Source: a virus
DNA length: 64,000 nt
Virus record (IMG/VR): IMGVR_UViG_3300037071_003688
Reading direction: 5' to 3' (one strand)
Below the pieces are notes generated by a model. The model was given only the letters and a program-made list of their open reading frames with translations. It was not told the DNA's origin and ran no database searches. Every line of letters starts with the position of its first letter. Position 1 is the first letter of the stretch. Position numbers and translations under genes: made by a program. Positions 3,518 to 52,093 of the stretch are shown here, piece by piece.

Positions 3518-3732
3518 CGCAGATCGAGCGACCGGGACAAGACAAACCCAAACGGAAACGGCTGGTCGAGGAACCCGTCGACGTGCCATTCGGTCTCCTC
3601 GCGTTCATGGTCGGCGGCTCGGTCGGCGGCTTCCTGCAATGGGCCGGGTTCGGTCTCATCGGGTCGCTGGTGCGCATCGCCGGGTTCGCATCGCTCGCCT
3701 GGTACGTCTACATCAAAGTTCAGAAAGATTAG
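3514..3732 (+). CDS. Small membrane protein
   Basis: Two hydrophobic segments; coupled start. Confidence 0.6.
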   Translation: MTQIERPGQDKPKRKRLVEEPVDVPFGLLAFMVGGSVGGFLQWAGFGLIGSLVRIAGFASLAWYVYIKVQKD

Positions 3733-3767
3733 GGTTGCGTTTCGCCGCGAGGAGGAGTAGCTTCACA

Positions 3768-3869
3768 ACTCCCAAGCGGACACCAGGTCCCGAGTCAGAC
3801 CCCTTCGGGGGCGAGACAGAGGAACGAGGACTGTGCGGGAGATCGGACCCGGCTTCGGCCGGGTCCTTT
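3768..3869 (+). ncRNA. Putative structured sRNA with its own promoter and terminator
   Basis: TTGCGT-N17-TAGCTT (3735-3763); nested stems CTCCC/GGGAG, GTCC/GGAC, CCCC-TTCG-GGGG; ends in a terminator. Confidence 0.55.
3845..3869 (+). terminator. Intrinsic terminator
   Basis: GGACCCGGC-TTCG-GCCGGGTCC-TTT. Confidence 0.75.
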
Positions 3870-8833: not shown

Positions 8834-11800
8834 ACCGCGGCCAAGTCGTGCTGCGCGTCGACGTGGGCGGTCCCCCGATCGAATACTTCGCCGACCAGGT
8901 CACTCGGGTCGTCGCCTACAACCCGTCGAGTCTCGACGCGTTCGAGTTCGTCAAGGACCCGGACGAGTACGTCTGGACGTTCGAGTCGGATGGTCGCGAC
9001 ATCTTCGTGGAGGAAGTCCTCGTCTACATCGACGGCACCGACCTGTTCACCCGCCACCCGGTGAACACCGAGTTCAACGCCCGGCTCACCATCGACCTGC
9101 GCACCCAAGGCGTCCACAAGGGCACGTCGCCCCGAGTCGATCGGATCAAGGGATGATCGAACGCATCAAGGTCGACGCCCTGCGCACAGTCCACCCGGGC
9201 GGACGCATCGAGATCACCCCGATCATCTTCGACGCGGACGGCGCAGCCGAGTGCTACGAACCGGCCACCGGCGGACCGCCATACGACCTCGGATACCTGG
9301 ACTACCTCATCAAGCTCAACCGCGACTGGGCCGACGCCCCGCCGTACACCGCCGACACCATCGCCTGGATGGAAGCATTGAGAGCGATGGTCGTGGATCA
9401 CCAAGCTGGTCGACTGTGAAGATCCGACTGACGTGGCCCGCCGAGCCACACACCCGCTACGCCCAGTCCGCATTCGACGCGCAGGTCGGCAAACTCATCA
9501 AGCTCAACGTCGAAGGCATCGACACACCGTTCCCCGCCATACTGCGAGCGGCGACTGTCGGCGAGAACGGCCACGCCGCCGAGTTCGAGTTCGAGATCGA
9601 AGACCCGGCCGCGTGCGTCGTGCTGTCCGCCTACGTCGCCACCGGCGCAGTCAACAACCTCTCCATCGTGAACGATCAAGATAGTTGACAAACCGTAGAC
9701 CAGATGAGACAATCAAGGCATGGAAACCACCACGTACGAAACCTGGACGAAGGAAGGTCGTAGCTTCGTCCTCGTCCCTGTCGACATGGCTGCGCGAGAG
9801 GCCGCGTTTCTCGCTGAACTGAGCGACGAAGACGCCGCCATGTGGGAGCCGTGGTACCCGGACTTCCCGGGTGAGCGTGCCCCTGTCGCCTACGAACTCC
9901 ACGACGAGGCCGGTGAGGTCGCCTGGGAGCGCACCATCCGCCCGCTCGATCCGTGGTCGGCGTACGACGCAGTGTCGGACGTCCTGCTCCGCGAGGGCTT
10001 CACCCCGCCGCCCGGCCCCGACCGCGGCTTCTGCGAACACGGCATGTCAGCCGATCTGTGCGAAGGCCCGAACCACTACGGCTACGACGACGAGGATCGG
10101 TTCTAGATGACCGGCGATCTCATCACACTCCCCGTCGCCCCGGCGTACGAGGCGATCATGAACGCCCTCACCGAGGAGGAACTGTTCGCGCTGGTCGAAG
10201 CACTCTCGCTCGTCTCAACCGCGTCGGCTGAGAACGATCGGATGCGCACCGCCATCATCCGCGAACTCTCGATCCGAGAGGCATACATCCGCGGCGCCAA
10301 GCGCCGCCATCCGAGCGGAGGCTCCACCTGATGCAAGAGAAGATCGCCAAGATCACCGGCACGTTCCTCGGGTGGGAGGACCACGGGATCCTGACCGCCA
10401 TGCTCGACCTCGACTACGGCGGCGGAGGCTGCCAGTCGACGCCCGGTCATTTCCTCGACCGCTCAACGGGCCACGACGGCGACTACCTGTTCAGCCGTGA
10501 GGGCACCGCCTACGGGATGACGTTCGTCGCCCGACTGATCAAGGCGTGCGGCGTGCGACGGTGGGAGGACATCAAGGGCCGCACCATCATCGCTCTCATC
10601 GAGGATGACCGTGTCGTCGGGATCAAGCCGCTCCCAACCGAACGCGGCGAGCCGTTCATGTTCGCCGACCTGCGCGCCAGGTTCGAGGCGGAGGCCCGAT
10701 GACCCACGGCATCTGGGGCATGGCGTGCTTCAACGGCCTGTCGGCCGATCAGCAACGATTCGTGGTCGAGGAGGGCTACCTGCCGTTCGGCTACAAGCCC
10801 GAAGGCACCTGCAAGCGCGGCGCCGAGATCGGCATCGAAACCTGGGACGACACCAAGCCCGGCCCCCGCTTCTACTGCCGACCATGCGCGATCGCGTTCC
10901 TCGAAGCCGGACGCTGCGACTGCCACGTCGGCTCAGGCGAAGGCGCCTGGCGCGAGACCCACGACTACGACTGCGCGACGCTGCGCACACTGAGGAGCTT
11001 CGCATGATCACACTCACCACCTCGAAGCCGACATACCGATCGAAGGTCGTCGCCGAAGTCGACTTCCCCGTGCTCGCCTACCTTGAGCACGAGACCGCCG
11101 ACCGACGCCGCTTGCGCCGCCACAAGGGCGACATAGCGGTGCGGCTCCCGGCCCCGATCATGACCGACTACGGCCGAGGCCCGAAGCGTCCCGGTGTCTC
11201 CGAGATCGGCAAGTACCGGATGATCGGCGCGCTGCTCACCGTCACCATCGGCGAGGACTCGATGACCGGCACCGGCGTCCTCTACAAGACGCTCCCCGAG
11301 GTCGTCCACTTCTGGCCCGCCATCGACCTCGACCGGACCACGGTCAAGGGCTACAAGAACGGCCGCTCCGACATCCTCGACTGGACGCTCGTCGCGGTCA
11401 CGCTGCACGACTACCCCCCGGCCTGGCCCGACATCCCACGCGCCCGCATCACCCGGCAAATGAGTTGACAGACCGGCGACGGGCGGTGTAAAGTTAAGAC
11501 GTGAGGGGGAGGACCCCTCGGAAAGGAAACCACCATGACAGATGCCGAAATGGCCGAGATGGATGCCTTCGTGGCCGATCTCGGATACCGCAACGAGGTG
11601 CGAGCAGCGATGCTCGCCCACATCGGCCGGATCAACATCCTGTCGATCTCCGGTGGCCGCATCGAGTGGCTCGATGACTTCACCGTCAAGCTGCCGATCA
11701 GTAACGGCTACGCAGTCGAGGTCGAGTACGACCGAGGCTGGGACCTGTACACCGTGCGCCGGACCTTCACCCGCCGCCCGAAGTGGACGGTCGACAACCC

Positions 11801-21071: not shown

Positions 21072-21634
21072 CGTGGCGGTTTCCTTCCCGTGGGAGGCGT
21101 CTCCTCCCACATCAACATCGTAACACGGGTGTCAAGTCTGTTGACAAACCGTGGACGATCTGCGCATAATGATGGTGGACATGGAAACCACCACCAACTA
21201 CATCACCGTCTTCCCGGCGACGAACAATCGGCGGGGCTGGATGGTCGCCACCCGCGACGGCGCGAACATCCGCCACGTCCGTTTGGAGACGGCTTCGATC
21301 CACGACCCCGAGGCCGCACGAGCCGAGGCAGCCAAGCTGTTCCCCGGCAAGGCGATCTACATGGCCGGTGACACGGTCAAGCCGTGGGAGGCGGCTGCTT
21401 GATGCCACGAACCCTCACCGCCCGCTACACCGGGACCTGCCGCCGCTGCGACGGCCCGATCACCCCGGGCGACACCATCCTGTTCCTCGGCAAGCGCAAC
21501 ACCGTCCACGAGAACTGCGCCGAGCGGGCCGAGTCGGGCGTGATCGAGATCTACTTCCCCTCGACCGGCAACCGGATCACCCGCAACCGGCGGGGCACCT
21601 GCGAAGACGCCCCGGCGTGTGGATGCTGCACCTT

Positions 21635-22033: not shown

Positions 22034-23446
22034 GCGACCATGCTACAGCCGTAGGTGCTGGTCAACTCTGTTGACAAACCGTGGACATTCTGCGCATAAT
22101 AATGGTGTGAGGGAAGGTCCCTCCGCTGAAAGGATCCGGATGTTGAGCAACTGGGGCGCCTACCCCGTCGAGCGGTTGAGACCGGACAGCGAGACCTGGG
22201 AGAGGGGCACGTGCTACCTCGGCTCGTGGGCCGACACCCTCCTACGAGCCGCCTACGAGCGTGGCGAGGACGAAGCGGTCACCGCCGATGGCTGGCGGTA
22301 CAGGTACGCCTACGACAGATGAAAGGAACCACATGACAGACTTCGACCGAATCGCCGAGGCTTTCGCTGATGAGTTCGGCCGCACTCCACCGATGCATTG
22401 GGAGGTCTGCGGCGCCTGTAGCGGCCGGGGCATCATGACGTTGAAGCGGCTGGCGATCTCGTCCGAGGACTTCGACGCCGACCCGGACTTCCGGGAGGAT
22501 TACTTCAACGGGGTGTACGACGAGCCGTGCGACGAGTGCCGGGGCCGCACCACCGTCTCGGTGATAGACGAGAGCCGCCTGACGACCGCGGAGGTCGCCT
22601 GGGTCGAGGAGTGGTGGGCCGACGAGCGGGACTACGCAGCGTTGGTCGCGATGGAACGCCGGATGGGTTGCTGATGACCACCATCGGCTACACGAACTAC
22701 ACGAACCTCGATGCCTACTTCGGGCGGGGCTACCGACGCGGCGACCGGCTCGTCAAGGGCTACAGCGGCGAGATCGAGATCAGCGACTTGGAGTACGACC
22801 TGGAAGCGATCTTCGCTCGCCACAACCGTGACGACCGCCCAGACGGCAGGCTTTGCCCGTCGATGTCGGTCGGCGATGTAATCATCCTCGGCGAGGGTGC
22901 CTTCACCGTCGAGAGCGAGGGGTTCAGCCCGATCAACCTCGACCTGCGAGATCTGATCACCGACCGCACATGGAGCGAGGTCGACCGATGAGCGCCGCCT
23001 GGATCGTTATCGGCTGGCCCGACGCCCACGACCGGCGCACCATCAGGAACCGGCGCACCGGCGAACTGATCGGCTACATCCGCTCGACACCGGACCCGGT
23101 CCGTTACTTCGCCGAAGATCGCAACGGCTTCCCGATCGAGGGGACGTTCTACACCCGCCACAACGCGCTCGACGCGCTGATCGAATCGACACGGCGATGA
23201 TCTTCGAGGTCGACCATGAGCGCGACGGCTACTCCGTCGAGATCTACACCGAGCCGGACGCCAACGGCATGATGGACTTCCTCGGTCGGATCGACCTGTT
23301 CTCGGGCTGGCTGTACTTGGAGGATGGCCGCGAGTTCGAGATCCCGCACGCCCTCGTCGGGCGAGACGCCATCCGGGCGTGGGCCACCGCCAAACTGTGA
23401 AATGTGTTGACAAACCCGGGACGACCTGGGCATAATGTAGTTGGAC

Positions 23447-36256: not shown

Positions 36257-39200
36257 GTGGCCACCGCCACGTTCGCCAATCCGTGGCATGACGAAATAGG
36301 TCGCTTCGCGCCCAAGGGAACCGGCACGAAGTTCGGCGCGACGCAGGACGAGATGCGGTCTCTGTTCGAGCCGGTGCGTCCGCTCGTGGACGTCCTCGAA
36401 GGCGCCGGTGCGAAGACCTACCTCGTGGGCGGCTCGGTCCGTGACCGGCTGCTCGGCATCGACGCCAAGGACATTGACATCGAAGTCCACGGGCTGACCC
36501 CCGACGAGACCATCGCACTGTTGAAGGAACGGGGCGCCCGCGTCGATGAGGTCGGCAAGGCGTTCGGCGTGTTGAAGGTGACATTCGACGGCGAGACCCA
36601 CGACTTCTCGTTCCCCCGCACCGAGGTCAAGACCGGCGAAGGCCACACCGGCTTCGATGTCACCGTCGACCCGAACCTCGGCATCGAGCAGGCGCTCGCC
36701 CGCCGCGACTTCACCATGAACGCGCTCGCCGTCGACTCCGACGGCAACATGGTCGACCCGTTCGGCGGGGTCGCTGACCTCAAGGCCGGTGTGCTGCGCC
36801 ACGTCGGCCCGGCGTTCTCAGAGGATCCGCTCCGCATCCTGCGCGGCGTCCAGTTCGCCGCCCGCCTCGGCCTCAAGTTCGACCCGGAGACCGCCAAGCT
36901 CGCCCACGACCTGCTGCCCGAGTTGGAGAACATCTCGACGGAACGCGTGTGGGGCGAGTTCGAGAAGCTCGGCGGTAAGGGCGTCTCGATGGAGGCCGGT
37001 GTCCAGGCACTCAAGGACGTCGGTCTCGACACCCGCTACGGCAACGTCCACTTCGACGGCGAACCGAACCTGACCGGTCTCACCGGCGACCATCGCGCCG
37101 CCGTCGCGCTCACCGCGATCGGCGTCGACCCCCGCCAGATCGGAGCGCCGAACACCGTCTCCCGCACCATGCGCGACGTCAGCCAGGCGCTCGCGTTCAC
37201 CGGCGACCAGGCCGCATCCCGGACCGCGGCCCGCGAGTTGAAGTACGGCACGTTCGAGGACGCCGCCCGGATCGCAGGCCCAAACGACAACGTCGACCCA
37301 CGTGTCCTCACCGGCCCACTCCCCGGACTCGTGACCGGCAACGACGTGATGGCCCGCGGTGTGCGCGGCTCAGCGATCGGCGAGGTCCTGCGCGCCGTGC
37401 AACAGGCCCAGGACAACGAGACCATCGTGACCCGCGAGGACGCGCTCGCCTGGCTCGACAAGCACGCCACCGCCGCTATCCGCCGCTCCGCCGCGTTCGT
37501 GAATCCGTGGCACGACGAGGTCGGACGGTTCGCCCCGAAGGGAACGGGACGCCGGTTCGAGCCGCGCGGCGGCGCCGACGCCCAAGCACAGGCGCTCGCA
37601 GAAGCGATGGCGACACGAGCCGAGTTGAACGGCGGGTTCACATTCGACCCGCGCGGCAACCTGTTCATCAAACCCGATCCGTCGCTGCCCCGCGAGGAAC
37701 ATCGCGGCGCTGTCGCCGTGCCCGGCCATTCGGCGATCATCACGATGGAAGCCTTCCAGGACCCGACACGTGGCAAACAGTTCATCCGCGACTACCTCGA
37801 CCAGCACGCCGAAACCATCGCCTCGCAACCGGACATCTTCATCGGCGGCTGGCACGACCGAGCGCACGGCGAGGTCGTGCTCGACCTGTCGCAGGTGCGC
37901 CCCCTCGATGAGGCGATCAAACTCGGGATCGAACGCGGCGAACAAGCGATCTTCGATCTCGACAGCGAGGAAGACGTCCCAACTCACGGGACAGGCGGAC
38001 GCGAGAACGTCAAGATAGTTGACGCATCGGGTCAGGGTTTGGTACGATTCAGTCATGGCAGATACCGCGGACCACCGCCAGCAGGCGCCGGACGTAACGG
38101 TACGTCCGGGCGACCTGGAAGGCTGGGCGGACAAGTCCGAGGAGGAGAAGCAGGCGATCGTGGACGCCATGTACGAGGGTCTGAGTTCGCCAACCCCTGG
38201 CACGACGAGATAGGCCAGTTCGCGCCGAAAGGAACCGGCTCGACCGGGAAGGGCCGCTCCTCGAAGGCGGAGGAGGCCGCAGCGGCGAAGCTCGCCCGGG
38301 CGAAGGCCCGCAAGGTCCCGAAGCCGACCGAGGACGACGTGATCCAAGGCCAGGTCGACGCCCTCCTCGCGCGTGAGGGTTTGGTGCGCGCCGGTGGCGA
38401 TCGGCGTGGCAACAACACGGCCCGGAAGAAGCGCGCCAAGGCGCTCGCCGCCGAGTTCGGCGACGGCACGACCTGCGCCTGCCCGGACTGCGGGCAGCGC
38501 ATCGCGGCCGACGCGGCAACCGCCGAGAAGCTCGGCATCGACGCGCTCACGCAGGACAAGATCCTGGTGGGCACGTTGGGTGGCTCCTACAAGATGGAGA
38601 ACCTGATCCCGACCTGCCCGCCATGCAACCAGTCGCGCGGCGACCGGGAGGGCATCGGTGTCGTCGGCGACGTGCGCCAGACGTGGGGATCAGCGGAACG
38701 GTTCACGCGGACGGTGGTGCGTCAGCACGGCGACGCCATCGCTCAACGCTTCCAGGAGCGCCGGTCGGCGATCATGAAGCGCAAGGGGATCACGTGGGAG
38801 GAGCACATCGCCGAGAACCCGGACGCGCTCCCGCAGGACTTCGATCGGCTACGCCGCCCGGTCGGCGGGAACTTCGCCGTCGACGGCTGGACCCCCGGGG
38901 AGATCGTCACCGACTGGCTCGATCGTGTCGCCGTCAACGGCCACGCCGTCGACCATGAACTTCGTGTAGACGATCCCGTTCGAGTCGACTTCCCAGGTGA
39001 GCAACTCACCCTCGACCCCTGGGTCACCGACGATCGGGTTGTCGAGGTCATCGGGGGTGTCCCACCCGAACCGCTTGGCTCGCACGATCGTGCCGTCCTC
39101 AACCACAGACCGCAGCGTAGCGAGTTCGGCAACCCGTGGCATGACGAGATCGGTCAGTTCGCGCCGAAGGGCACGGGCACCAACTTCGCCAACATCGCCC

Positions 39201-41506
39201 GTCGCGCGGACGAAGCGGAAGCGGCCGGATCGCAGATCTCAGAACTCGACCTTGAGCAGGCCGCACTGCTCGATGACCGGCTGCGCGAGTTCGGGAAGGC
39301 GATGGGCAGCGACTTCCAGAACGACGACGGCGTCAGGCTGACCCATCACGCACTCGACCAGCGGCATGGGCGTGGGACGATGAACGGACTCGCCGCCACC
39401 AACCCGGATGGCGTGGTGCTGGGCGCGATCGCCTACAACAAGAACCCCGGCGACTACCACATCGAGTTCCTCGGCTCGACCGGTCTCGTCAAGGGCGTCG
39501 GTTCGCAGTTGGTGATCCCCGTGATGGAACGGGCCGCAGCCGATGGGGCAAAGGTGACACTCAAGGTCGCCGGGACAAAGAGCGCCGCCTCGTTCTGGGA
39601 GTCGCTCGGCTTCGAGCGGGACTGGGAGAGCGCCACCGGCGCCACCATGCAGCCCGCCGACGTGCAGGCATGGGTGGCGAATCTCAACCGCGAACGCGAG
39701 GGTGTCTTGGTCGGCGCAGGCGCAGCACCAGAAGGATGGGATCCCGACGACGACCGCTGGGCTGCCCACGCGATCGAACTCGGGCTGATGTCCATTGTCG
39801 CCTCCGCGGCGCAGTTCATGAACCCGTGGCACGACGAGGTGGGTCGGTTCGCGCCGAAGGGGACCGGGCGCAAGTTCGGTAAGCACGTCTCGTGGCATGT
39901 CGGCTCAAACGGCTACGAGGTGATGCACAACGGGAAATGGGTCCGGACGCCGGAAGCCATCAAGCACTACGGCGCGCTCGAAGTAGCGCAGCACATGTCG
40001 CCGCTCGAAGCCCGTCAACTCCGTGAGGAGTTGGAAGGCCAGACGATGATCGACCTTCTCAATGACACGGACGTTCAGTACAAGGCAACGGCATCGCTGG
40101 CGGTCCTGACTCACGACCCGAACTTGCACGGCAAGGAAGGTTTCGAGCATCTTCAACGTCAAGTCACCTTCGCCAAAGAGGCCGACCTCGGGCTGGTGAT
40201 GCAGTTGTACGCCGCAGAGCAGTTCGCCTCATGGGAACACTCCGGGGTCGACATCGCCCTGTTGAAGGAAGCCACGCAGGCGCACATGCGCGGTGAGATT
40301 GACGCCGCCTCACTGTCACGGATGATCACCGAGCAGTACGGGATCACGGTCGAATCGGGCGCCGTTGGCTGGTTCAACCGGGCCTGGCAGATCTCCGCCG
40401 TCTCCCACGAATCAACTGCGATGCAGATCCAGATCGCCGAGCAACGCGGTCTAAGCGCAGCCGATGCGGCGATGCGCGACTACGTCGGCGACTCGACGCT
40501 GGACAAAGCCAACGATCTGACGTGGTCGATGGGAGCGACGATCAACGCCGTGACGTCGGCTCACATCCGCAACACTGAGGAGAAGCTGACCCAGGCCCCG
40601 GAACTGGCGTTGCCGACGATCCACCGAGGCTTGAAGGGTGAACAGTTCACCAGCATCCAGGCCGGTGACACGGTCCAGTCGAACCCCTTGTCGTCGTGGT
40701 CGTTCGACCCGAACCAGGCCGAGCACTTCGCCACCAACTTCATCGACACACAAGGGATCGTGATCACCACCGAGTTCAACCCGGCCAACGTGCTCACCAT
40801 CAGCGACATCAGCGGCATGGGATCACTGGACGAGCGAGAAGTGATCATGATCGGCGAACCGGTCAAGGTCACCCGCGCTCGTCTTCCAACGAAGCCCAGC
40901 GGTTGGGCAGTGATCCCGGAGAACGTGTACCTGATTGACACCCCGGAGAACGTCGACTGGATCACCCGCGAACCCGACGAAGCTCTGACGGCATCGGCGG
41001 CCAAGTTCGCGAATCCGTGGCATGACGAGATCGGACGTTTCGCGCCGAAGGGTCAGGGCAGCACGTCCGGCGGGCTGGACAACGAGGAGGCTGACGCCGA
41101 GTTCGAGGAGAAGTACGGCAACGAACGCCGATCCGGCGACGGCGACTGCTTCGAGGTCGGTTTGCACTTCATCCACTCCATCCCTCGCGGCGAGGAGGAC
41201 CGCTACAAGCTGTGTCACGGCGTGCCCGAGGGCCAAGGCCCGATCGAAGGCGTCCGCTTCGATCACTGCTGGATCGAACGAACCGACCCGCTCCCCGAGA
41301 CCATGACCCCCGAGCAGCGGGCGATGTTCGAGCAGTACGAGATGAACATCACCGTGATCGACAAGTCGAACGGCAACGATGTCGAGATGCCCCGACTGCT
41401 GTACTACCAGTTGGGCAGCATCAATCCTCGCGACGTCCGCCGCTACACACCAGACGAAGCCCGCCGCGAGGCCGTCCGAACCGGGGTTTACGGGCCGTGG
41501 ACATAG
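36257..41506 (+). CDS. Modular effector polyprotein A: tRNA nucleotidyltransferase, unknown domain, HNH, GNAT, ADP-ribosyltransferase, Cys-His domain
   Basis: GGSVRD/DIDI/RRDFTMNAL/EDPLR; CPDC..NLIPTCPPCN; KGVGSQL..FWESLGF; HRG/SSWS/EREV; GDCF..HCWIE. Six NPWHD motifs. Confidence 0.85.
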   Translation: MATATFANPWHDEIGRFAPKGTGTKFGATQDEMRSLFEPVRPLVDVLEGAGAKTYLVGGSVRDRLLGIDAKDIDIEVHGLTPDETIALLKERGARVDEVGKAFGVLKVTFDGETHDFSFPRTEVKTGEGHTGFDVTVDPNLGIEQALARRDFTMNALAVDSDGNMVDPFGGVADLKAGVLRHVGPAFSEDPLRILRGVQFAARLGLKFDPETAKLAHDLLPELENISTERVWGEFEKLGGKGVSMEAGVQALKDVGLDTRYGNVHFDGEPNLTGLTGDHRAAVALTAIGVDPRQIGAPNTVSRTMRDVSQALAFTGDQAASRTAARELKYGTFEDAARIAGPNDNVDPRVLTGPLPGLVTGNDVMARGVRGSAIGEVLRAVQQAQDNETIVTREDALAWLDKHATAAIRRSAAFVNPWHDEVGRFAPKGTGRRFEPRGGADAQAQALAEAMATRAELNGGFTFDPRGNLFIKPDPSLPREEHRGAVAVPGHSAIITMEAFQDPTRGKQFIRDYLDQHAETIASQPDIFIGGWHDRAHGEVVLDLSQVRPLDEAIKLGIERGEQAIFDLDSEEDVPTHGTGGRENVKIVDASGQGLVRFSHGRYRGPPPAGAGRNGTSGRPGRLGGQVRGGEAGDRGRHVRGSEFANPWHDEIGQFAPKGTGSTGKGRSSKAEEAAAAKLARAKARKVPKPTEDDVIQGQVDALLAREGLVRAGGDRRGNNTARKKRAKALAAEFGDGTTCACPDCGQRIAADAATAEKLGIDALTQDKILVGTLGGSYKMENLIPTCPPCNQSRGDREGIGVVGDVRQTWGSAERFTRTVVRQHGDAIAQRFQERRSAIMKRKGITWEEHIAENPDALPQDFDRLRRPVGGNFAVDGWTPGEIVTDWLDRVAVNGHAVDHELRVDDPVRVDFPGEQLTLDPWVTDDRVVEVIGGVPPEPLGSHDRAVLNHRPQRSEFGNPWHDEIGQFAPKGTGTNFANIARRADEAEAAGSQISELDLEQAALLDDRLREFGKAMGSDFQNDDGVRLTHHALDQRHGRGTMNGLAATNPDGVVLGAIAYNKNPGDYHIEFLGSTGLVKGVGSQLVIPVMERAAADGAKVTLKVAGTKSAASFWESLGFERDWESATGATMQPADVQAWVANLNREREGVLVGAGAAPEGWDPDDDRWAAHAIELGLMSIVASAAQFMNPWHDEVGRFAPKGTGRKFGKHVSWHVGSNGYEVMHNGKWVRTPEAIKHYGALEVAQHMSPLEARQLREELEGQTMIDLLNDTDVQYKATASLAVLTHDPNLHGKEGFEHLQRQVTFAKEADLGLVMQLYAAEQFASWEHSGVDIALLKEATQAHMRGEIDAASLSRMITEQYGITVESGAVGWFNRAWQISAVSHESTAMQIQIAEQRGLSAADAAMRDYVGDSTLDKANDLTWSMGATINAVTSAHIRNTEEKLTQAPELALPTIHRGLKGEQFTSIQAGDTVQSNPLSSWSFDPNQAEHFATNFIDTQGIVITTEFNPANVLTISDISGMGSLDEREVIMIGEPVKVTRARLPTKPSGWAVIPENVYLIDTPENVDWITREPDEALTASAAKFANPWHDEIGRFAPKGQGSTSGGLDNEEADAEFEEKYGNERRSGDGDCFEVGLHFIHSIPRGEEDRYKLCHGVPEGQGPIEGVRFDHCWIERTDPLPETMTPEQRAMFEQYEMNITVIDKSNGNDVEMPRLLYYQLGSINPRDVRRYTPDEARREAVRTGVYGPWT
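38055..38213 (+). CDS. Overprinted 52-aa acidic protein inside polyprotein A
   Basis: Class I promoter (TTGACG 38019, TACGAT 38043) with ATG 6 nt downstream, in another frame. Confidence 0.55.
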   Translation: MADTADHRQQAPDVTVRPGDLEGWADKSEEEKQAIVDAMYEGLSSPTPGTTR

Positions 41507-44500: not shown

Positions 44501-46290
44501 CGGACATCGTCGGCGATGTCGTCGTGGACGCCGCCACCGGTCAGGCGCTCCGCCCCGGCCTGAACGTGTCGGACAAGATCATCACCGATCTCGTGGACCG
44601 CCACATCGGACGGCTCCAAGATCTCGGCCCGCTCGTGCAAGCCTCACTGCGCGACGCGCTGCACCTCGCCGTCTCCAACCAGTTGACGCTCGATGAGGTC
44701 ATCCGCGAGATCCAAGCCACCGGACCATTGGGAGCAACCGCGGCACGCGCGATCGCACGCACCGAACTCACCGCCGCCACGAACGGCGGGATGTTGACCG
44801 GATGGAAACGCGACGGGTTCCCGTTCAAGCAATGGATCAGTCTTCACGACGAACGTGTCCGCCATGCGCACCTCGAAGCCGACAAGCAGATCAAACCGAC
44901 CGAGCAGGAGTTCGAGGTCGGCGGCTGGCCCGCCCAATACCCCGGCGACCCACGCCTCCCGGTGCATCTGCGCATCAACTGCCGCTGCTACATGGACCGC
45001 ATCGGTGAAGATGGCACGACCATCGGCACACGGCTGGTCGACTCGACCCGCGCCACGCTGTACCGCCTCGCCCAAGAGTTGAACATTCCGGGCCGCTCGA
45101 AGATGCTGAAAGAGGACCTGTTCCAGGCGATCGACCGGTACCGCAACGGGTTCGGGTTCCAACCATTGGAGGAGATGTCCCGGGCGCAACTGCTGATCCG
45201 TGCCCGCGCGGCGGGGATCGTCGGCCGCTCGAAGATGTCGCGCCCCGAGTTGATGATCCGCTTGCGCGACCTGTCGACCGGTCGGACCCGTGACCGCTGG
45301 CTGATCGACGCCGGGCACGGCACCCGCGAACAGATCGCCGCCGTCCAAACCCAACTCGCCGCCGACATCGCCGCGCTGCACCAAGGTCCGATCGTCGGCG
45401 CCGGACCGCCACCATCAGTCGAGAAGGTCGACACGATGCGCCGCAAGGTGTTCCGCCGCTACGGCGGCGCCGACACCGGCACCGCGATGTGCGTCGGCTG
45501 CGCGGCCCGGATGCACTGGTCGAACACGACACGCTGGGAACAGGTGACGCTGATCCGGATCGACCCGAAGATCTCGTGGTCCGCCCGCAACGCGTTCCCG
45601 GCGTGCCTCGCCTGCGCCCCGAAGCTCGCCAAGCTCGGCACGGAGAAGCTCTCGGCGACGTTCACCATCGACAACTCATGGACGGCGATCGCCGCCACGT
45701 TCACCGGCTGGGGACCGATCCTGGCCCAGTTCGCGAACCCGTGGCACGACGAGCAAGGCAAGTTCGCGCCGAAAGGCACCGGCAAGAAATACGACTCGGC
45801 GGCGATCAAGGCCAAGGTGAAAGCGTCGATGGAGGCCGGGGTCAACGTCGACCGCGTCGGCGACCCGCAGGCGACGCTCTCCAAGCTCGACGCCTGGGCC
45901 AAGCAGATGGGATCCGACTTCGACGCCGACGAAGGGGTCGGCATGATCCGCGAAGCGTTGAATGACGTCGGGGCTGGCTCGAAGTCGTTGATCGCCAACC
46001 ACAAGAACGGGATCGCCGGGATCATCTCGTACGACTACGACCCGGACAGCAAGATGTACATGATCCATCACCTCGGCTCGACCGGGATCGCCCCCGGGAC
46101 CGGCACTCGGCTGGCGACTCAGGTCATGATCCAAGCCGCGTCGAACGGTGCTGGGGTCGAGTTCGAGGCAGCCCAGAACGACACCGCTCCCGAGTTCTGG
46201 TCGTCGCTCGGCTTCGATGTTTCCGACCCCAAGCACGTCGTGATGAGTCCATCCGATGTCGGCGCCTGGATGCGAGACTTCACGGGATGA
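41497..46290 (+). CDS. MuF (head morphogenesis) polyprotein B: zincin, ADP-ribosyltransferase, GNAT, MuF, Rho-N repeats, degenerate HNH, GNAT
   Basis: HEYGH..EAHAEAFA; YRG/SAT/KEV; QGKGIGT; IARTE..KQW..DERVRHAH..YPGDP..INCRC; two GRSKM repeats. Four NPWHD motifs. GTG start overlaps the stop of A. Confidence 0.85.
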   Translation: MDIAPTIPVPTTEAEIGTLRVPIDPDDPLLADQTLVASAGIIADFEDSYLDELTGAVEQSLRSLRQMVVQRLRAHATIAKPIAASAARNGQFMNPWHDDRGRFAPKGTGRANAIRTWGTDRKVTIEKWVSGHKHSVTTSNGDVIVLHDHNNVLSQSPGGEQAISDLLNGAADAHDLCPGMNVPQIMVKNVDGLIADMAALHDMQRVEWERLRNVGAFVTGNSPDGNKAPGWIFVNPDRLHSEQLYAQDDMPAMIALGPARYKVMHEYGHLRMTQGLDSVFAINDQFKYTSDSRRSGGMSKYGNTKPIEAHAEAFAEWAARGGNIERGPKGQFLTDIDYVVTSYANAFGWGKDLEQVGRPLAVAAAGGPQDPIPLIIGDSPEGPIYIYADGTIEETLVASAGQFMNPWHDEIGRFAPKGTGRYIKVLGEFPGEPSQEMLANADFRYQADMGKRFTWLWQRTYQTHRAVKQIARNLLAGNEPFDGVDLNDPLLERYSKPSRFAGGPKHEYNETDLHNDLQAAAEWILVQPVEKQPVLYRGAMTDESKMGVFKVGADIPLDLVSATPDRFEAAPYSSPFGSPTSYLDPVRLSFQFTGAEGTSLRPHVTGNMSDSKEVVMRGRGRITRMEKNEHGIWQIWVDASNAQEEALAASIGDDAVILAILDQPFHHYDETGALVAAAGQFMNPWHDEIGRFAPKGTGVKRLGPKTLNDDPTAYDKVDLDDMEATKASLEAYADHVTAELADMFPGEELIFGLDEYHKIAKSTRPPEYHAQFRLTNADGEDVAKMARVIEMEDDSAFAAGMWVDDSMQGKGIGTVLQEGFEHWAASQDLSAINVFATMVGRWAWMRAGYDWANTEAFGDIANLLGDADPVGRSFRRAWQDVTIPDDLPTPYELSNILGRKAILHPQFPNWSGTKPLRTRALALAATAIAPREERLAKVREAYAQWWPQYPAAAEGYIVDPEAEAAWEALMQGGLVAAGPFDLDDFNVMTAEEWALAFDVEAADIVGDVVVDAATGQALRPGLNVSDKIITDLVDRHIGRLQDLGPLVQASLRDALHLAVSNQLTLDEVIREIQATGPLGATAARAIARTELTAATNGGMLTGWKRDGFPFKQWISLHDERVRHAHLEADKQIKPTEQEFEVGGWPAQYPGDPRLPVHLRINCRCYMDRIGEDGTTIGTRLVDSTRATLYRLAQELNIPGRSKMLKEDLFQAIDRYRNGFGFQPLEEMSRAQLLIRARAAGIVGRSKMSRPELMIRLRDLSTGRTRDRWLIDAGHGTREQIAAVQTQLAADIAALHQGPIVGAGPPPSVEKVDTMRRKVFRRYGGADTGTAMCVGCAARMHWSNTTRWEQVTLIRIDPKISWSARNAFPACLACAPKLAKLGTEKLSATFTIDNSWTAIAATFTGWGPILAQFANPWHDEQGKFAPKGTGKKYDSAAIKAKVKASMEAGVNVDRVGDPQATLSKLDAWAKQMGSDFDADEGVGMIREALNDVGAGSKSLIANHKNGIAGIISYDYDPDSKMYMIHHLGSTGIAPGTGTRLATQVMIQAASNGAGVEFEAAQNDTAPEFWSSLGFDVSDPKHVVMSPSDVGAWMRDFTG

Positions 46291-49200
46291 GCTTCGACCC
46301 GGACGACGACCGCTGGGCCGAACGCGCAGCCGAGGTGGCAGTGACCACCATGACCCTCGAACCAGGCGGCGAGTTCACCGTCAAGTTCCGGGCCACCGAG
46401 TTCAACAACCCGTGGCATGACGAGATCGGACGGTTCGCGCCGAAGGGTTACGGGCACATGGGCGGCAACAAGTACAGCCGTGAGGTCGCGGTCCCCCGCA
46501 GCGTCGAGGACGCCGCCGCTGTGTACGCGGCGATGACCCTGTACAACGCCGTCAACCGTGGAGACCCGATGCCCGCCATCCACGAAGCCCTCCACGCGCT
46601 GATCAAGACAGCCGAGGCCGCAGACCAGGACCTCATGGAACGCCTGATCAAACCGGCCGCGCGGGCAATCGGCGACAACGACATGGACACGGCGCACGAG
46701 TTGATCGTTGACGCCGACAGCGAGGTGTTCAAGCCGTTCACCGAGGAGTTCGAGGTCCCGCCACCGGAGAAGATCACGGTCACCGGCGGGCAACCCCCGG
46801 AGTCCGGCTTCGGCCCGACGATCTGGCAGACCGTCACCCCCGAAGGGCACACCATCACGTTCAACAGCCGCGGTCACACCGTGACCGACGAACAGGCGTA
46901 CACGATCCTGTCGGCAGCGACGACCGCGGCGCGCGCCGGGAACATGGACCAAGACGTCACCATCCAAGTCCAAGCCTCGTTCAACCGGGACACGATGTCG
47001 CGCGAGCCACTGGTGATGGGGTTCGTCGTCGCCAACCCGGACATCGGCACCGACCCGCATCGAACCGTCAACATCACACCCGAGTTGATCAACGGTAACT
47101 TCGACCCGGGCGGGAGCACCGAGCGCATCCCGTCGACGTTGACGGCATCAGCGGCGCTCGTGGAACCGTTGCGGATCACCGTGCTGCACGAGATGGGCCA
47201 CGTCTCGTTGTTCGAGGAGGCGTTCCACCGGCAAGGCGATCTCACGCAGGGCAAGGAATGGTTCAACGAGCAGATGATTCAGACGGCGAACACGACGCCG
47301 ATCACCGACAAGCCGTTCATGTCGCTGTACGCCCAGGAGAACACGACCGAGATGCACGCCGAAGCGTTCGCTGAGTGGACCAACACCGGCGGCAACACGA
47401 ACAACCCGTGGGTGCTACGCATGGCCGACCAGTACGGCTGGTCGACGGGCCGCGCCGCCGAAGACCTGCCATTGGCCGCGGCAGGGGCGCCACCGATCGA
47501 GCCGTGGGTGCCGATCTGGTACTTCCCGGAGGAGCCGGTCATCCTCATCGACAGCCGCGACGGCGCCAGCTACGTGTACGGCGACGCGGCGCTCGCCGCC
47601 ACCGAACCCGTTGTCGCCTCCGCCGGGCAGTTCATGAATCCTTGGCATGACGAGATCGGACGGTTCGCCCCGAAGGGGACCGGCTCCAAGTTCGACGCAG
47701 TGAGCGCGATGCAGGACGTGCAGAACGGCAAGCCGGTGTCGGTCACCGGCGTCGAGGCCGTCGACCTCGCGTTGGAGATGGCCCGGCTTTACCATCCGAT
47801 CGACATGACCCTCGTCACGGTCGACGGGTCGCACATGTTCAGTGAGATGCGAGCGAACGGGCGGTCACGGGTCGAGATGCCGCAGATCCCCGGCAAGTTC
47901 CACCCCGCCTTCGAGGAGCACCTGCGCGAGTTGGGTGTGACCATGACTCCGGAGACGATCGACCCCCGCGAGTTGCACGGCACCCAATCCGAGTTGGACG
48001 GTCAGGCAGTCGGCAACATGATCCAGTCCTACCGGGACGGCGGCTTCAACTTCACGTCGAAGCCGTTGGTCGTCTCCTCCGACAACCGGATCCTGGACGG
48101 TCACCATCGTTGGGCCGCGGCGGCGATCGAGTCCGCGGCGTGCGGCGGCTGCATCGAGATGCCGATCATGCGTGTCGACCTGCCGATGAGCGAACTGCTC
48201 CACGTCGCCGACGACTTCGTGGACAGTCTCGGCATCGTCCGTCAGGGCCACGGCGAGCACGGAAAGCACAGCCCGCAGCCGCCGCCCCTGCACGAGAAGA
48301 TCGCCGCGGCTGTCATCCCACCATCGCAGAATGAGCAGGTGGAGTTCGAGTACGCGACCGACACCGATGACGGGATCACCGACGAGCAACTCGCCGACCT
48401 GCCACACGGCGACGGCTCCGCGTTCGAGGAGGGGGAGGGCGTGGTCGCTTCCCCCGCCTCGTTCGCCAACCCTTGGCACGACGAGATCGGACGCTTCGCG
48501 CCCAAGGGCACCGGCACGAAGATCGGCTTCGACGCCGACGCCGCCTCCAACCAGTTCGCCGACGATCTCGCCACACTCAACGCCAACGCCGACGCGATGG
48601 CCGAGCCATACCGCATCCACTACGAACGCGGCGGCGAGAAACAGTCGACGTTCGCTCAGGCCCGCGACGAGTACCTCGCCTACGGCTCATCGGAGATGGA
48701 CCGCCAACTCCGCACCAACGGCGACAGCACAGTCAAGGATCCGGCGCACCGGCGGGCGCTGATGAACGCCGTCGTGCTCGATGAAGCCATCGAACGGTCC
48801 GGTGTCGTGTTCGCCGAGGACACCGTCCTGCTGCGCGGCGTGCGCAACACGCAGGCCGGGAACCTGACGGTCGGCACCGAGTTCACCGATCCCGCGTTCG
48901 TGTCCGTGACAGCGTCACCCGGCGAAGCCGCGCAGGCGTCCGGGCAGCAACAACGCCCGGCCGGTTTCCCACCCTCGGCGAACCCGGGCACCATCGTCGC
49001 GTTGAAGGTCCCGAAGGGAACCAAGGCGATGCCGGGCGCCGAGAACGAGAAGGAATGGGTGCTGCCACGTGGCGGCACGTACACCGTGACGAACGTGATC
49101 GAGGGCGACGGGGTCCGCATCGCCGAGGTCGAGGTGACATTCCCCGAGTCGCCGCCGGTGACGAAGGGGATCCCAACCATCAACGACTTGCTCGAACGGA

Positions 49201-49817
49201 CCGCGGGGCAACAAGAACGCCGCGGCCTCGCCGCCTCCGCCGGTGGCCTCATCGTTCACGAGCGCCTCTCATGGGATCCCGCCGACATCGACGTGATGAC
49301 GAACCGCCGCCAGTTCCGGCTGATCTGGGATGCGGGTGTCCTCGCCGACGCCACCATCACGCGTGCCGCGTTCGGCAACCCGTGGCATGACGAGGTCGGG
49401 CGCTTCGCGCCGAAGGGCACCGGCAAGCAGGTCGCCGCCGAGGGCCGGGCACGTGAACTGTTGGCCGGGGAACGAATCGCGCTCGCCGATGTCGACGTGC
49501 CAATGGGAACCCCCGAACAGATCAAGTTGACGACCGACACCCGCGACGACGACGCCCTGTGGGAAACCGCCACACCGATCAAGGTCTCGGCGCAGGACAA
49601 GTTCGTCGCATCCGAGGAATCCGTCAAGACACGACCGGTGCGCGACGTCGTGCTCGACGGCGAAGCATTCCGACCCGGCTACCCGCCCCGCCTGTACCAG
49701 TTGCCGGACGGCAGCTACCTCGTCGCTGACGGCCACCATCGAATCGTGATGCACAAGCTGCTCGGCACCCCGAGCTTCGACGCAATCGTGCTGCCCTATC
49801 CGGAGGAGAAGCAATGA
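46287..49817 (+). CDS. Polyprotein C: zincin, ParB/Srx-like, VIP2-like ADP-ribosyltransferase, ParB/Srx-like
   Basis: HEMGH..EMHAEAFA; ILDGHHRW; LLRG/FVSVT/EKEWVLPRG; ADGHHR. Four NPWHD motifs. Confidence 0.85.
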   Translation: MSFDPDDDRWAERAAEVAVTTMTLEPGGEFTVKFRATEFNNPWHDEIGRFAPKGYGHMGGNKYSREVAVPRSVEDAAAVYAAMTLYNAVNRGDPMPAIHEALHALIKTAEAADQDLMERLIKPAARAIGDNDMDTAHELIVDADSEVFKPFTEEFEVPPPEKITVTGGQPPESGFGPTIWQTVTPEGHTITFNSRGHTVTDEQAYTILSAATTAARAGNMDQDVTIQVQASFNRDTMSREPLVMGFVVANPDIGTDPHRTVNITPELINGNFDPGGSTERIPSTLTASAALVEPLRITVLHEMGHVSLFEEAFHRQGDLTQGKEWFNEQMIQTANTTPITDKPFMSLYAQENTTEMHAEAFAEWTNTGGNTNNPWVLRMADQYGWSTGRAAEDLPLAAAGAPPIEPWVPIWYFPEEPVILIDSRDGASYVYGDAALAATEPVVASAGQFMNPWHDEIGRFAPKGTGSKFDAVSAMQDVQNGKPVSVTGVEAVDLALEMARLYHPIDMTLVTVDGSHMFSEMRANGRSRVEMPQIPGKFHPAFEEHLRELGVTMTPETIDPRELHGTQSELDGQAVGNMIQSYRDGGFNFTSKPLVVSSDNRILDGHHRWAAAAIESAACGGCIEMPIMRVDLPMSELLHVADDFVDSLGIVRQGHGEHGKHSPQPPPLHEKIAAAVIPPSQNEQVEFEYATDTDDGITDEQLADLPHGDGSAFEEGEGVVASPASFANPWHDEIGRFAPKGTGTKIGFDADAASNQFADDLATLNANADAMAEPYRIHYERGGEKQSTFAQARDEYLAYGSSEMDRQLRTNGDSTVKDPAHRRALMNAVVLDEAIERSGVVFAEDTVLLRGVRNTQAGNLTVGTEFTDPAFVSVTASPGEAAQASGQQQRPAGFPPSANPGTIVALKVPKGTKAMPGAENEKEWVLPRGGTYTVTNVIEGDGVRIAEVEVTFPESPPVTKGIPTINDLLERTAGQQERRGLAASAGGLIVHERLSWDPADIDVMTNRRQFRLIWDAGVLADATITRAAFGNPWHDEVGRFAPKGTGKQVAAEGRARELLAGERIALADVDVPMGTPEQIKLTTDTRDDDALWETATPIKVSAQDKFVASEESVKTRPVRDVVLDGEAFRPGYPPRLYQLPDGSYLVADGHHRIVMHKLLGTPSFDAIVLPYPEEKQ

Positions 49818-52093
49818 CCGCCACCTTCGCCAACCCGTGGCACGACGAAATCGGCCGCTTCGCGCCGAAAGGCACCGGCACCAAGGGCGACATTGACGAC
49901 AGCGGCGGGATGACCCGACCAGGATGGCTGGGACTGCACGCCCCCAAGAGCGCGAAGACGCTGACGCGGGTCGCACGGATCCTGGACTCCATGCCCGAGA
50001 CCCGCGAAGTAGCCGACCTCGTGAAGGGCGCGGCCGAGGCCGAAGACCCGGACGAGTTCGATGCGTGGATGGAGGACGCCTTGAACGCCATCGCACGCGC
50101 TGGCGGCACGAGCGGCGAGATGCTCGACATCGAACGCCAGTTGGACGAGATCCGCCGCGCCGGGTTCACCATGCCGCCTGTCCTCACGTGGGGGATCAAC
50201 GAGTTCGCCAACCCGTGGCACGACGAGGAAGGCAAGTTCGCGCCGAAGGGCGCAGGCACGAAGTCGTCCGGCGTCGCCGCTCCCGAGGGGACCGATCAGC
50301 CGACCCAGGGCAACGAGGGCGACATCGTCTCGAAGCTCGAAGTGAAGCCGGGCGGTAACCGCTCGACCGGAGTCGACCATGAGGCGCTCGCTCAGGAGGT
50401 GATCAACGGCGGCGACATCGTCGTCAACCCGATCGACGCCGACGACGTGATCCGCAACTTCGCCGACGCACCCCAGGACGTCGTTGACTTGACCGGGGTC
50501 ACGGTCGAGGGCGCCCCCAACATGTTCTCGAAGATGCGCGAGTCAGGGCGCGCCCGTACCGAGATGCCGCAGATCACCCCCGACGTGCAACCCGAGTGGT
50601 TCGACACGCTCCGCCAGGAAGGCATCAACTTCGTCGCAAACGAAGTCGACCCGGCGTCACTGTCGGCAACACAGTCGGAACTGAACGGCAAGAAAGTCGG
50701 CGGCATGATCAGGGCGATGGAGGGCGGCACGATGTCGCTCGAAGGCGACGCCCTGCTCGTCTCGTCGGACGGCCACATCCTCGACGGCCACCATCGTTGG
50801 GCGGCTGCGGCGGCGATGTCAGCGGACTGTGGCGGCTGCATCAAGATCCCGGTGATCGTGATCGACCTGCCAATCACGGAACTGGTCTCGTACGGCCTCA
50901 ACTGGACTGACGCACGAGGGATCCCCCGCGCCGGGGTCGGAACGCCGAGTAAGAAGCAGGCGGCTGGAATGTCGCCGTGGATCTTTACTATGAAGGGCGT
51001 GACCTTCGCGGCCAAGAACTTCATGGAGGGCGGAACCCCCGTCCCCGAGGGCGAGTACCCGAAGTTCGCGACCGACGCCGAGGACGGCCTCACCGACGCC
51101 GACTTCGTTGGTCTGCCGCAGGGCGACGGTTCGTTGTCCGCCGCCAACGCCAACACGGCTGTCGCCGAGAAGCCAGCCGAAGGCGACGCTGTGACGGCGT
51201 CGGGCGCCCGCCGCCAGTTCGGCCTGGCCGAGTTCATGAACCCATGGCACGACGAGATCGGGCGCTTCGCGCCGAAGGGAACCGGCACGCAGTCCGGCGG
51301 ATCCCACCCGCCGGTGACGAGCGGTGACGTCACCATCGAGTTCGATGACAAGGGCGAGATCGTCGTGTCCGACGAGGCGATGGCGCTCGCCAAGCCGGTC
51401 TACGAGGAGGCCCAACGCCGTGAACGGGCGATCTCCGACCGGCTGATCGAGATCGTCGGCGACCGCTCCCCGGAGCAGTACGAGGAACCACCACCGCCGC
51501 AGTTGTACGGCTTCGAGTTCCGCCGCAAGGAACAAGACAAGATCGCCGAGAAGATCGAACGGGAAGTCCTCGAAGCCCACGAGGAAGGCATCGTGATGAC
51601 CCGCGAGCAAGCCGCCGCCAAGATCAAGGACGCGGTGCGCTACACCGTTCACTACACGCAAGACGAGTTCGGCGAGAAAGCGCAAGCCGTGATCGACCAA
51701 CTCGCGCAGGACAACCCGGGCGGCAAGGTCAAGAACACGTGGCCCCCCGGCTCGAACAACGTGTACAAGGGCGTCAACGTCAACGTCACCACCGACGATG
51801 GCTACACGTACGAGATCCAGTTCCACACCCCCGAGTCGCAAGCCATCAAGGACGCCCAACACGACCTGTACAAGCAGGCCCGTGTGCTCCCCAAAGGCGA
51901 CCCGCGTCGAGTCCAACTCGAAGCGCAGATGGACCAGTTGAGCAAGGGCGTCGAACCGCCGACCGGCGCGATCGAGGTTTCGACGCCAGAGCGGTGGCGC
52001 GAACGGCTGGCAGCGAGCGCCGCCCGCCTCCGCCACTTCCTCACCCAACGACACATCCTCTCCCAGACCCGACATTGGAGCGTCCATGAGTAA
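49814..52093 (+). CDS. Polyprotein D: small helical domain, ParB/Srx-like, RelA/SpoT synthetase
   Basis: ILDGHHRW; RRK..KI, DAVRY, YKGVN, YEIQFHT. Three NPWHD motifs. Confidence 0.85.
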   Translation: MTATFANPWHDEIGRFAPKGTGTKGDIDDSGGMTRPGWLGLHAPKSAKTLTRVARILDSMPETREVADLVKGAAEAEDPDEFDAWMEDALNAIARAGGTSGEMLDIERQLDEIRRAGFTMPPVLTWGINEFANPWHDEEGKFAPKGAGTKSSGVAAPEGTDQPTQGNEGDIVSKLEVKPGGNRSTGVDHEALAQEVINGGDIVVNPIDADDVIRNFADAPQDVVDLTGVTVEGAPNMFSKMRESGRARTEMPQITPDVQPEWFDTLRQEGINFVANEVDPASLSATQSELNGKKVGGMIRAMEGGTMSLEGDALLVSSDGHILDGHHRWAAAAAMSADCGGCIKIPVIVIDLPITELVSYGLNWTDARGIPRAGVGTPSKKQAAGMSPWIFTMKGVTFAAKNFMEGGTPVPEGEYPKFATDAEDGLTDADFVGLPQGDGSLSAANANTAVAEKPAEGDAVTASGARRQFGLAEFMNPWHDEIGRFAPKGTGTQSGGSHPPVTSGDVTIEFDDKGEIVVSDEAMALAKPVYEEAQRRERAISDRLIEIVGDRSPEQYEEPPPPQLYGFEFRRKEQDKIAEKIEREVLEAHEEGIVMTREQAAAKIKDAVRYTVHYTQDEFGEKAQAVIDQLAQDNPGGKVKNTWPPGSNNVYKGVNVNVTTDDGYTYEIQFHTPESQAIKDAQHDLYKQARVLPKGDPRRVQLEAQMDQLSKGVEPPTGAIEVSTPERWRERLAASAARLRHFLTQRHILSQTRHWSVHE

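Follow-up and report, generated by a model that had tools for sequence, protein, structure and literature searches.

Short genes lying out of frame within longer ones are well known in phages, as lambda Rz1 within Rz and the overlapping genes of phiX174 illustrate. Leaderless sigma-A-type promoters, in which TTGACN, a spacer of 17-18 nt and TANNNT precede a start codon placed at the 5' end of the transcript, are likewise familiar from actinobacteria and their phages. Polyvalent phage proteins are giant multi-domain virion-associated proteins (Iyer et al. 2017, PMC5512222), and MuF polymorphic toxins are accompanied by a small immunity open reading frame (ORF) immediately downstream (Jamet et al. 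2017, PMC5576092); the terms 'internal promoter' and 'linker' are absent from the text of Iyer et al. 2017 (PMC5512222). Here, we describe a locus of the IMG/VR virus record IMGVR_UViG_3300037071_003688, a phage-like stretch of 64,000 nt (hereafter the window) with 65% G+C and nearly all of its genes on the + strand, which belongs to a contig of about 147 kb from soil metagenomes. In gene A, which encodes a giant multi-module polyprotein, a second ORF of 52 codons lies at the junction between module 2, a domain of unknown function, and module 3, which is HNH-like. Our overall explanation, held with a confidence of about 0.6, is that this ORF is an authentic small gene that codes for a protein in the +1 frame of gene A, at the junction after module 2.

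The locus has something of each of these systems. As in the Rz1/Rz and phiX174 overlaps, a longer gene contains, on its own strand and in its +1 frame, the whole of a shorter one, and a functional link between their products is likewise what we propose here. Unlike in those overlaps, it is the embedded frame that looks older and constrained, the host frame being a low-complexity linker; moreover, the small gene has a promoter-like site of its own and sits in a cargo polyprotein, not in a lysis cassette. With the leaderless promoters of actinobacteria this site shares the hexamers, their spacing, the extended -10, an ATG 6 nt past the -10 and the lack of a Shine-Dalgarno sequence (none precedes the ATG at 38055), but it is found inside an ORF, with a -35 that doubles as conserved codons of module 2. 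As in the polyvalent and MuF systems, giant multi-domain proteins occupy the portal/MuF region and a small acidic ORF follows an effector-like domain. However, in contrast to MuF toxin-immunity pairs, the small ORF is here inside the gene, in another frame and between modules, with the big frame reading through it, and the domain that precedes it is no recognised toxin. Nested +1 phage genes and pairs of an effector and its partner are thus known; what is new is a partner-like gene inside a polyvalent cargo gene, in another frame and between two modules, whose promoter-like site also serves as the conserved terminal codons of the module before it.

The two reading frames after module 2

The composition of the region changes abruptly at the end of module 2. 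Over 38010-38190 the G+C content at the third codon position (GC3) of the main frame drops from.8-.97 to.41-.48, and the alternative frame has G+C contents of about.79/.45/.87 at its three codon positions. When seven large genes were scored in 1,311 sliding windows with a log-odds model of codon usage trained on large genes, the annotated frame lost in 8 of them only, all at 38012-38236 and all in favour of the alternative frame (+0.3 to +0.46 bits per codon, versus -0.9 for the main frame). Main-frame codons ending in A or T amount to 59% here, against 13% elsewhere. At 38849-39142, by contrast with the junction, the main frame stays the best of the + strand frames. Both frames are open over about 130 nt. 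The nested ORF is not predicted by gene callers, and its sequence is missing from a library of 1.8 billion proteins, though a free-standing homolog is present there.

An assembly or sequencing error, with two compensating indels, would explain the frame switch itself and nothing else. We give it practically no weight, since a related polyprotein, P0005, keeps the same main-frame read-through, and we rejected it on the contigs of four other soil runs (38027-38190, 38163-38383, 37867-38087 and 38129-38291), which are identical to the window and cover both frame junctions. These contigs hold no polymorphism in the stretch.

A phmmer search of 1.84 billion representatives returned a single homolog of the small protein, P0024 (49 aa, E 1.6e-8, 63% identity). 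It is encoded by a free-standing ORF on a 921-bp ENA contig (L009) that has stops in all frames upstream, no module 2 and, downstream, a decayed remnant, with indels, of the peptide tag that heads the modules of gene A. An ungapped block of 94 nt is 79% identical between this contig and the window, and its 20 differences fall 4/3/13 on positions 1/2/3 of the alternative codons (binomial p = 0.004). Counted as codon changes, they make 9 synonymous and 8 non-synonymous ones in the alternative frame versus 0 synonymous and 17 non-synonymous ones plus a stop in the main frame. 

A polyprotein more distant from ours, P0009 on contig L010, has a module 2 that is 43-46% identical to that of the window. 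Directly after ...TGGTGGRENYDIAGA (...GGRENYDIAGA) follows an ORF of 52 aa, again in the +1 frame (3630-3785), with a GTG start five bases past GGAGG; GC3 is.86-.97 in this frame versus.28-.48 in the main frame. In an alignment of the three small proteins, the invariant residues are M1, V14, R17, P18, W24, D26, E30 and E31, and all three have N-termini of equal length.

These starts bear on the possibility of recoding, in which ribosomes would shift by +1 past module 2, so that the acidic peptide became an alternative C-terminus at which translation stopped. The alternative frame is indeed +1 and directly follows module 2. However, a TAG at 38015-38017 closes that frame and leaves less than 40 nt for the shift, no slippery site is common to the window and L010, and the ATG, ATG and GTG of the three homologs are equidistant from the conserved V-x-x-R-P; in L009, furthermore, there is no upstream module at all. 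Equal N-terminal lengths and a free-standing copy therefore argue for independent initiation and not for frameshifting, which we consider very unlikely.

The third comparison comes from P0005, a polyprotein of 2,295 aa from the Joint Genome Institute (JGI) that is 67-71% identical to ours and has its modules in another order, with the same junction. It is encoded on a contig of 35,983 bp from JGI 3300056388. Its linker is 55% identical, compared to 67-71% in the flanks, and the indels are multiples of three. When its DNA was reconstructed from that of the window with minimal changes, the potential identity was.90 in the alternative frame versus.55 in the main frame, an excess of.35 that none of 1,063 control windows from this alignment reached (maximum.26); the amino-acid replacements in this linker would be mostly silent in the alternative frame. 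Codon compatibility was also scanned with nine conserved residues of the alternative frame: all nine could be encoded at exactly one place each in P0001, P0005 and P0009, and elsewhere at most 6/9.

Could the small gene nonetheless be a relic, captured with its promoter between two once separate genes and disused in this phage, so that the signal reflects past selection? Composition and the L009 comparison gauge history, not present use, and such a region can decay, as seen from the tag remnant of L009 with its indels. But the ORF has kept its start, stop, frame and codon usage, and the arrangement persists in lineages that are 30% and more than 50% diverged. In addition, at the P0005 junction ENVKIVDA is identical, and the residues that correspond to the extended -10 (G-L-V-x-F) and to the ATG (H-G) are kept while those of the spacer have changed. 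We judge a relic distinctly unlikely.

By these comparisons it is the small frame that carries the evolutionary constraint over about 130 nt, the polyprotein frame being merely kept open as a linker, and the nested ORF is very probably a real gene under selection. This agrees with the sequence-only reading, which had drawn attention to a 52-aa acidic ORF in another frame and to a main frame that turns into a Gly/Arg-rich linker by read-through. The ORF is there, in the +1 frame, and the main-frame stretch reads as Gly/Arg/Pro-rich; composition, the purifying selection seen with the L009 homolog, the +1 ORF of L010 and the codon compatibility of P0005 support a real second coding frame, which is conserved in L009, in L010 and, as inferred, in P0005; and the off-frame composition of the main frame, beside the normal codon usage of the alternative one, is what a polyprotein frame reading through the small gene should leave. 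Free-standing homologs had been expected next to module 2: one exists (P0024 on L009), but no module 2 lies beside it. We propose that the long frame reads through what was once a small gene, because its Gly/Arg/Pro composition is that of a G+C-rich gene read off-frame. Modules 3-6 have no nearby start codon and would therefore depend on this read-through.

Other searches extended the set of relatives no further. In the phage collection there was no DNA match, and the protein search gave only a short match of a Fusobacterium phage to module 2; neither module 2 nor the small protein has a close relative in IMG/VR. No match came from two metagenome scans, from a profile search of genome contigs, or from word-based protein searches with the small protein (P0002) at near and longer lengths. 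A degenerate DNA pattern gave 120 matches, and tblastn on the retrieved loci found no homolog of module 2 or of the small protein.

Two further observations concern these sequences. Positions 190-270 of L009 (minus strand) resemble the 3' half of a tRNA (T-arm CTGGGTTCGAATCCCAG and acceptor strand), in which ARAGORN calls no whole tRNA; lying next to the free-standing small ORF, this may be what is left of an attachment site. In the main frame, the tail of module 2 (ENVKIVDASGQGL; ..KIVDASGQGL; 38003-38047) resembles the C-terminus of the alternative frame (EKQAIVDAMYEGL; ..AIVDAMYEGL; 38145-38185), 142 nt downstream, 142 being 1 mod 3, and the same likeness is seen in P0005. It may reflect an old out-of-frame duplication or chance (tblastn over the window gave E of about 4-5), and we did not use it as evidence.

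The promoter-like site in the last codons of module 2

The ATG of the small gene (38055-38057) is preceded by TTGACG (38019-38024), TG (38040-38041) and TACGAT (38043-38048), the last being 6 nt from the start codon. A promoter-like arrangement with N18, TACGAT, N6 and ATG within the ORF, almost identical to an intergenic promoter head at 9675, had been noted in the sequence-only reading, and the letters are as claimed: 38009-38024 (GTCAAGATAGTTGACG) and 9675-9690 (ATCAAGATAGTTGACA) are equal at 14/16 positions and identical over a 14-nt core (38010-38023). The -35 is overlapped by a perfect inverted repeat; similar palindromes occur at 21131, 22061, 28189 and 60015. Within this palindrome the TAG at 38015-38017 closes the alternative frame and the TGA inside TTGACG the third frame, so that the polyprotein frame alone can cross the motif.

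The motif belongs to a family. With up to 3 mismatches, the 14-mer has 15 matches versus 1.63 expected, most of them in one promoter family, and GTTGACAAACCGTGGAC has 9 occurrences versus 0.28 expected. The family aligns as STTGAC-AAACCGTGGAC-...-CATAAT-...-ATGGAAACCACC, often with a palindrome partner TCAAS five bases 5' of the -35, and one of its promoters precedes the capsid-like gene at 23441, so that membership of the family gives no firm sign of the early expression supposed in the sequence-only reading. The site upstream of the small gene (38018) has the STTGAC -35, the partner TCAAS, a spacer of 17-18 nt and a TAnnnT -10 that characterise the family. Its upstream half matches the 9684 site exactly and the 14272 site at 12/14 positions, and the distance of 6 nt from the -10 to the ATG is common to all three; it is in this sense a promoter-like site of the phage's own type, as had been suspected. 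It lacks the family spacer AAACCGTGGAC, having its own (38025-38042), and the METTT-type start ATGGAAACCACC, and is therefore a family outlier. The family profile is one of 120 nt coding in one frame upstream, a promoter that is non-coding in all three frames and 120 nt coding downstream, often in another frame. The 38018 site has the same profile as 11 other sites, the sole difference being an upstream frame without a stop.

On the + strand, members of this family are found at 1492, 9684, 11464, 12579, 14272, 17413, 21140, 22070, 23406, 25868 and 58866. The conserved core is unusually long (palindrome GTCAA-N5-TTGAC, spacer AAACCGTGGAC, -10 CATAAT), and several members lead into ORFs starting with ATGGAAACCACC (M-E-T-T-T), the one at 1492 having only 6 codons. 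The conservation of both spacer and start suggests a regulator site or a copied cassette.

Codon choice also favours the motif. To encode V-K-I-V-D as the exact 14-mer requires ATA (0.7% of Ile codons) and GTT (4.2% of Val codons), and TACGAT is made by GTA (1.1% of Val) and CGA (6.7% of Arg). From these sequence features, we consider that the promoter at 38018 is probably functional. A host-type promoter belonging to the small gene itself, and lying within the final codons of module 2, would then give a leaderless mRNA with its 5' end at or beside the ATG at 38055. For L010, translation of the gene would instead begin internally on the long mRNA, at GGAGG and GTG. A promoter 17-mer found no close relative in IMG/VR. 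The region upstream of the small ORF in L009 bears a likeness to the window promoter (TCAAGCTCATCGAG, same spacing), which we set aside as not significant (17/46 identical, versus a background of 11.5 +/- 3.2, maximum 23).

It may be the DNA element itself that matters, as an internal promoter or operator boosting or gating the downstream modules and genes B-D, or as a roadblock made by a repressor, the ORF being a by-product or a leader peptide with no role towards module 2. The perfect palindrome over the -35, present as at other family sites, would fit, as would the maintenance of the motif by rare codons; and no + strand terminator was found after the small ORF, so that the transcript would run on into the modules. 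Nevertheless, the peptide is under purifying selection in L009, where there is no polyprotein, and in L010, where there is no promoter-like site, and a leaderless transcript could not translate modules 3-6, which have no nearby start codon. We regard this explanation as unlikely.

Module 2 and the small protein as possible partners

The small ORF directly follows module 2 in the window, in L010 and, as inferred, in P0005, and it is not found in P0008, P0010 and P0016. This linkage across three polyproteins suggests a partnership between the small gene and module 2. By analogy, the orphan copy of the small gene in L009 may be read as the pattern often seen for immunity genes. In structure prediction, the small protein forms one helix (residues 29-43) with disordered ends (predicted local distance difference test, pLDDT, 62), and no match to it was found in Pfam, PHROGs or the ESM Atlas. 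The AlphaFold model of module 2 is confident (pLDDT 78.6). For this module we found no Pfam family, no PHROG-function match and no PDB fold (Foldseek E > 0.2; best VIA-align Z 3.6, with a root-mean-square deviation of 3.9 A over 73 aligned residues); in the ESM Atlas, its matches are all to hypothetical proteins of viruses, 132-141 aa in length (TM.71 by row). The predicted complex of module 2 and the small protein gave weak support to binding, with a score of 0.54, the best of 3 controls reaching 0.01; at least 23% of contacts are common to the runs, and the partner has a pLDDT of at least 52. The mark applied to this score was reached by 58/80 solved complexes and 2/110 mismatched pairs, and at 0.60 or below lie only 7/80 solved complexes together with both mismatches.

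Several points weigh against the view developed here. At the level of 0.54, a complex score errs more often than not, except where the prior is good. The word 'immunity', as used in the sequence-only reading, has no toxin to refer to, since module 2 is without a known activity. ENVKIVDA is also the conserved protein end of module 2, and part of the 14-mer match is therefore forced by the protein. A promoter-like site was sought in L010 and none was found, which shows that the promoter is not conserved along with the arrangement. Pairwise, the similarity between the L010 and window peptides is weak (E 0.05-0.09, in a small database), the alternative frame of P0005 is deduced from protein only, and the module-2 homologs P0008, P0010 and P0016 have no compatible +1 ORF (6/9 at most).

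With these points in mind, we propose only tentatively, and at somewhat less than even odds, that the small protein is a separately made partner of module 2, an inhibitor of the immunity type or a chaperone. It would bind module 2 in the producing cell and, having no NPWHDE tag, would not by itself be packed as cargo. The wider scenario is more doubtful still. Polyvalent cargo proteins might carry an embedded antidote gene in another frame, expressed on its own; the producing cell would make the inhibitor of module 2 separately, the virion would pack only the tagged polyprotein, and the effector would reach the next host un-neutralised. The polyprotein frame would have been born by read-through of a former pair of effector and partner genes.

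The surrounding cargo genes and the meaning of the arrangement

The coordinates of the locus and of the genes that follow it are collected in Table 1. In genes A-D together, the peptide F-x-NPWHDE-x-G-R/K/Q-FAPKG-x-G is found in 17 copies, each at the head of a different module. The DNA of these copies varies at synonymous sites, so that the tag is conserved at the protein level. Pfam recognises a poly(A)-polymerase/CCA head domain (PolyA_pol), HNH, GNAT and MuF in genes A-D, and the products of these genes thus qualify as 'polyvalent' virion-cargo proteins as described by Iyer et al. 2017 (PMC5512222). The module-2 homologs P0005, P0008, P0009, P0010 and P0016 have a common ending, ...TGGTGGREN-x-x-I; P0010 comes from GCA_041443045.1.

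Table 1. Coordinates of the nested small gene, its junction and the polyprotein genes in the window
Feature	Position	Strand	Remarks
Gene A	36257-41506	+	giant polyvalent virion-cargo polyprotein
Module 2 (tag copy 2 and ~150-aa domain of unknown function)	37487-38026	+	main frame; conserved end ...GTGGRENVKIVDA
Perfect inverted repeat GTCAA-N5-TTGAC	38009-38023		overlaps the -35; candidate operator, common to other promoters of the phage
Sigma-70/sigma-A-type promoter-like site	38019-38048	+	-35 TTGACG, 18-nt spacer, extended -10 TGgTACGAT
Main-frame read-through 'linker'	38027-38182	+	Gly/Arg/Pro-rich; open, without stop or start codon
Nested small gene (candidate)	38055-38213, including TAG stop	+	+1 frame of gene A; 52 aa, acidic (P0002); ATG 6 nt past the -10 (leaderless geometry)
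Tag copy 3 (EFANPWHDEIGQFAPKGTG)	38183-38239	+	head of module 3 (HNH-like, to ~39130); first 31 nt overlapped by the small gene
Gene B	ends 46290	+	
Gene C	46287-49817	+	
Gene D	49814-52093	+	

The rare Ile codon ATA is used in only 2/17 tag copies, those with NPWHD starting at 38192 and 36278 (ATA at 38210-38212 and 36296-36298). It is the ATA at 38210-38212 that gives the nested ORF its TAG stop; had the usual ATC stood there, the alternative frame would be about 35 codons longer.

Tagged modules are also found in other contigs. In a relative from IMG/VR (3300037307_000344) two tag copies stand in tandem at L003:3890-4070 (GKQSGNPWHDEVGRFAP... then GKQSGNPWHDEIGRFAPKGTG), and an HNH-like module homologous to module 3 (L004) is placed after a MuF/Rho_N segment, so that modules are shuffled between phages. 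A remoter form of the tag, ANPYHD-x-x-GRF-T/A, heads modules of unrelated proteins of lower-G+C phages on viral contigs of 57% G+C (L006, L007 and L008), and the tag is therefore wider than this phage group.

In conclusion, if the small protein is indeed the partner of module 2, effector-partner cassettes could be welded into giant virion cargo proteins without loss of the partner gene, and the small gene would be a handle on the function of an unknown phage domain. The locus is also a plain natural example of a long 'host' frame that came late, over a short nested frame that is under constraint.

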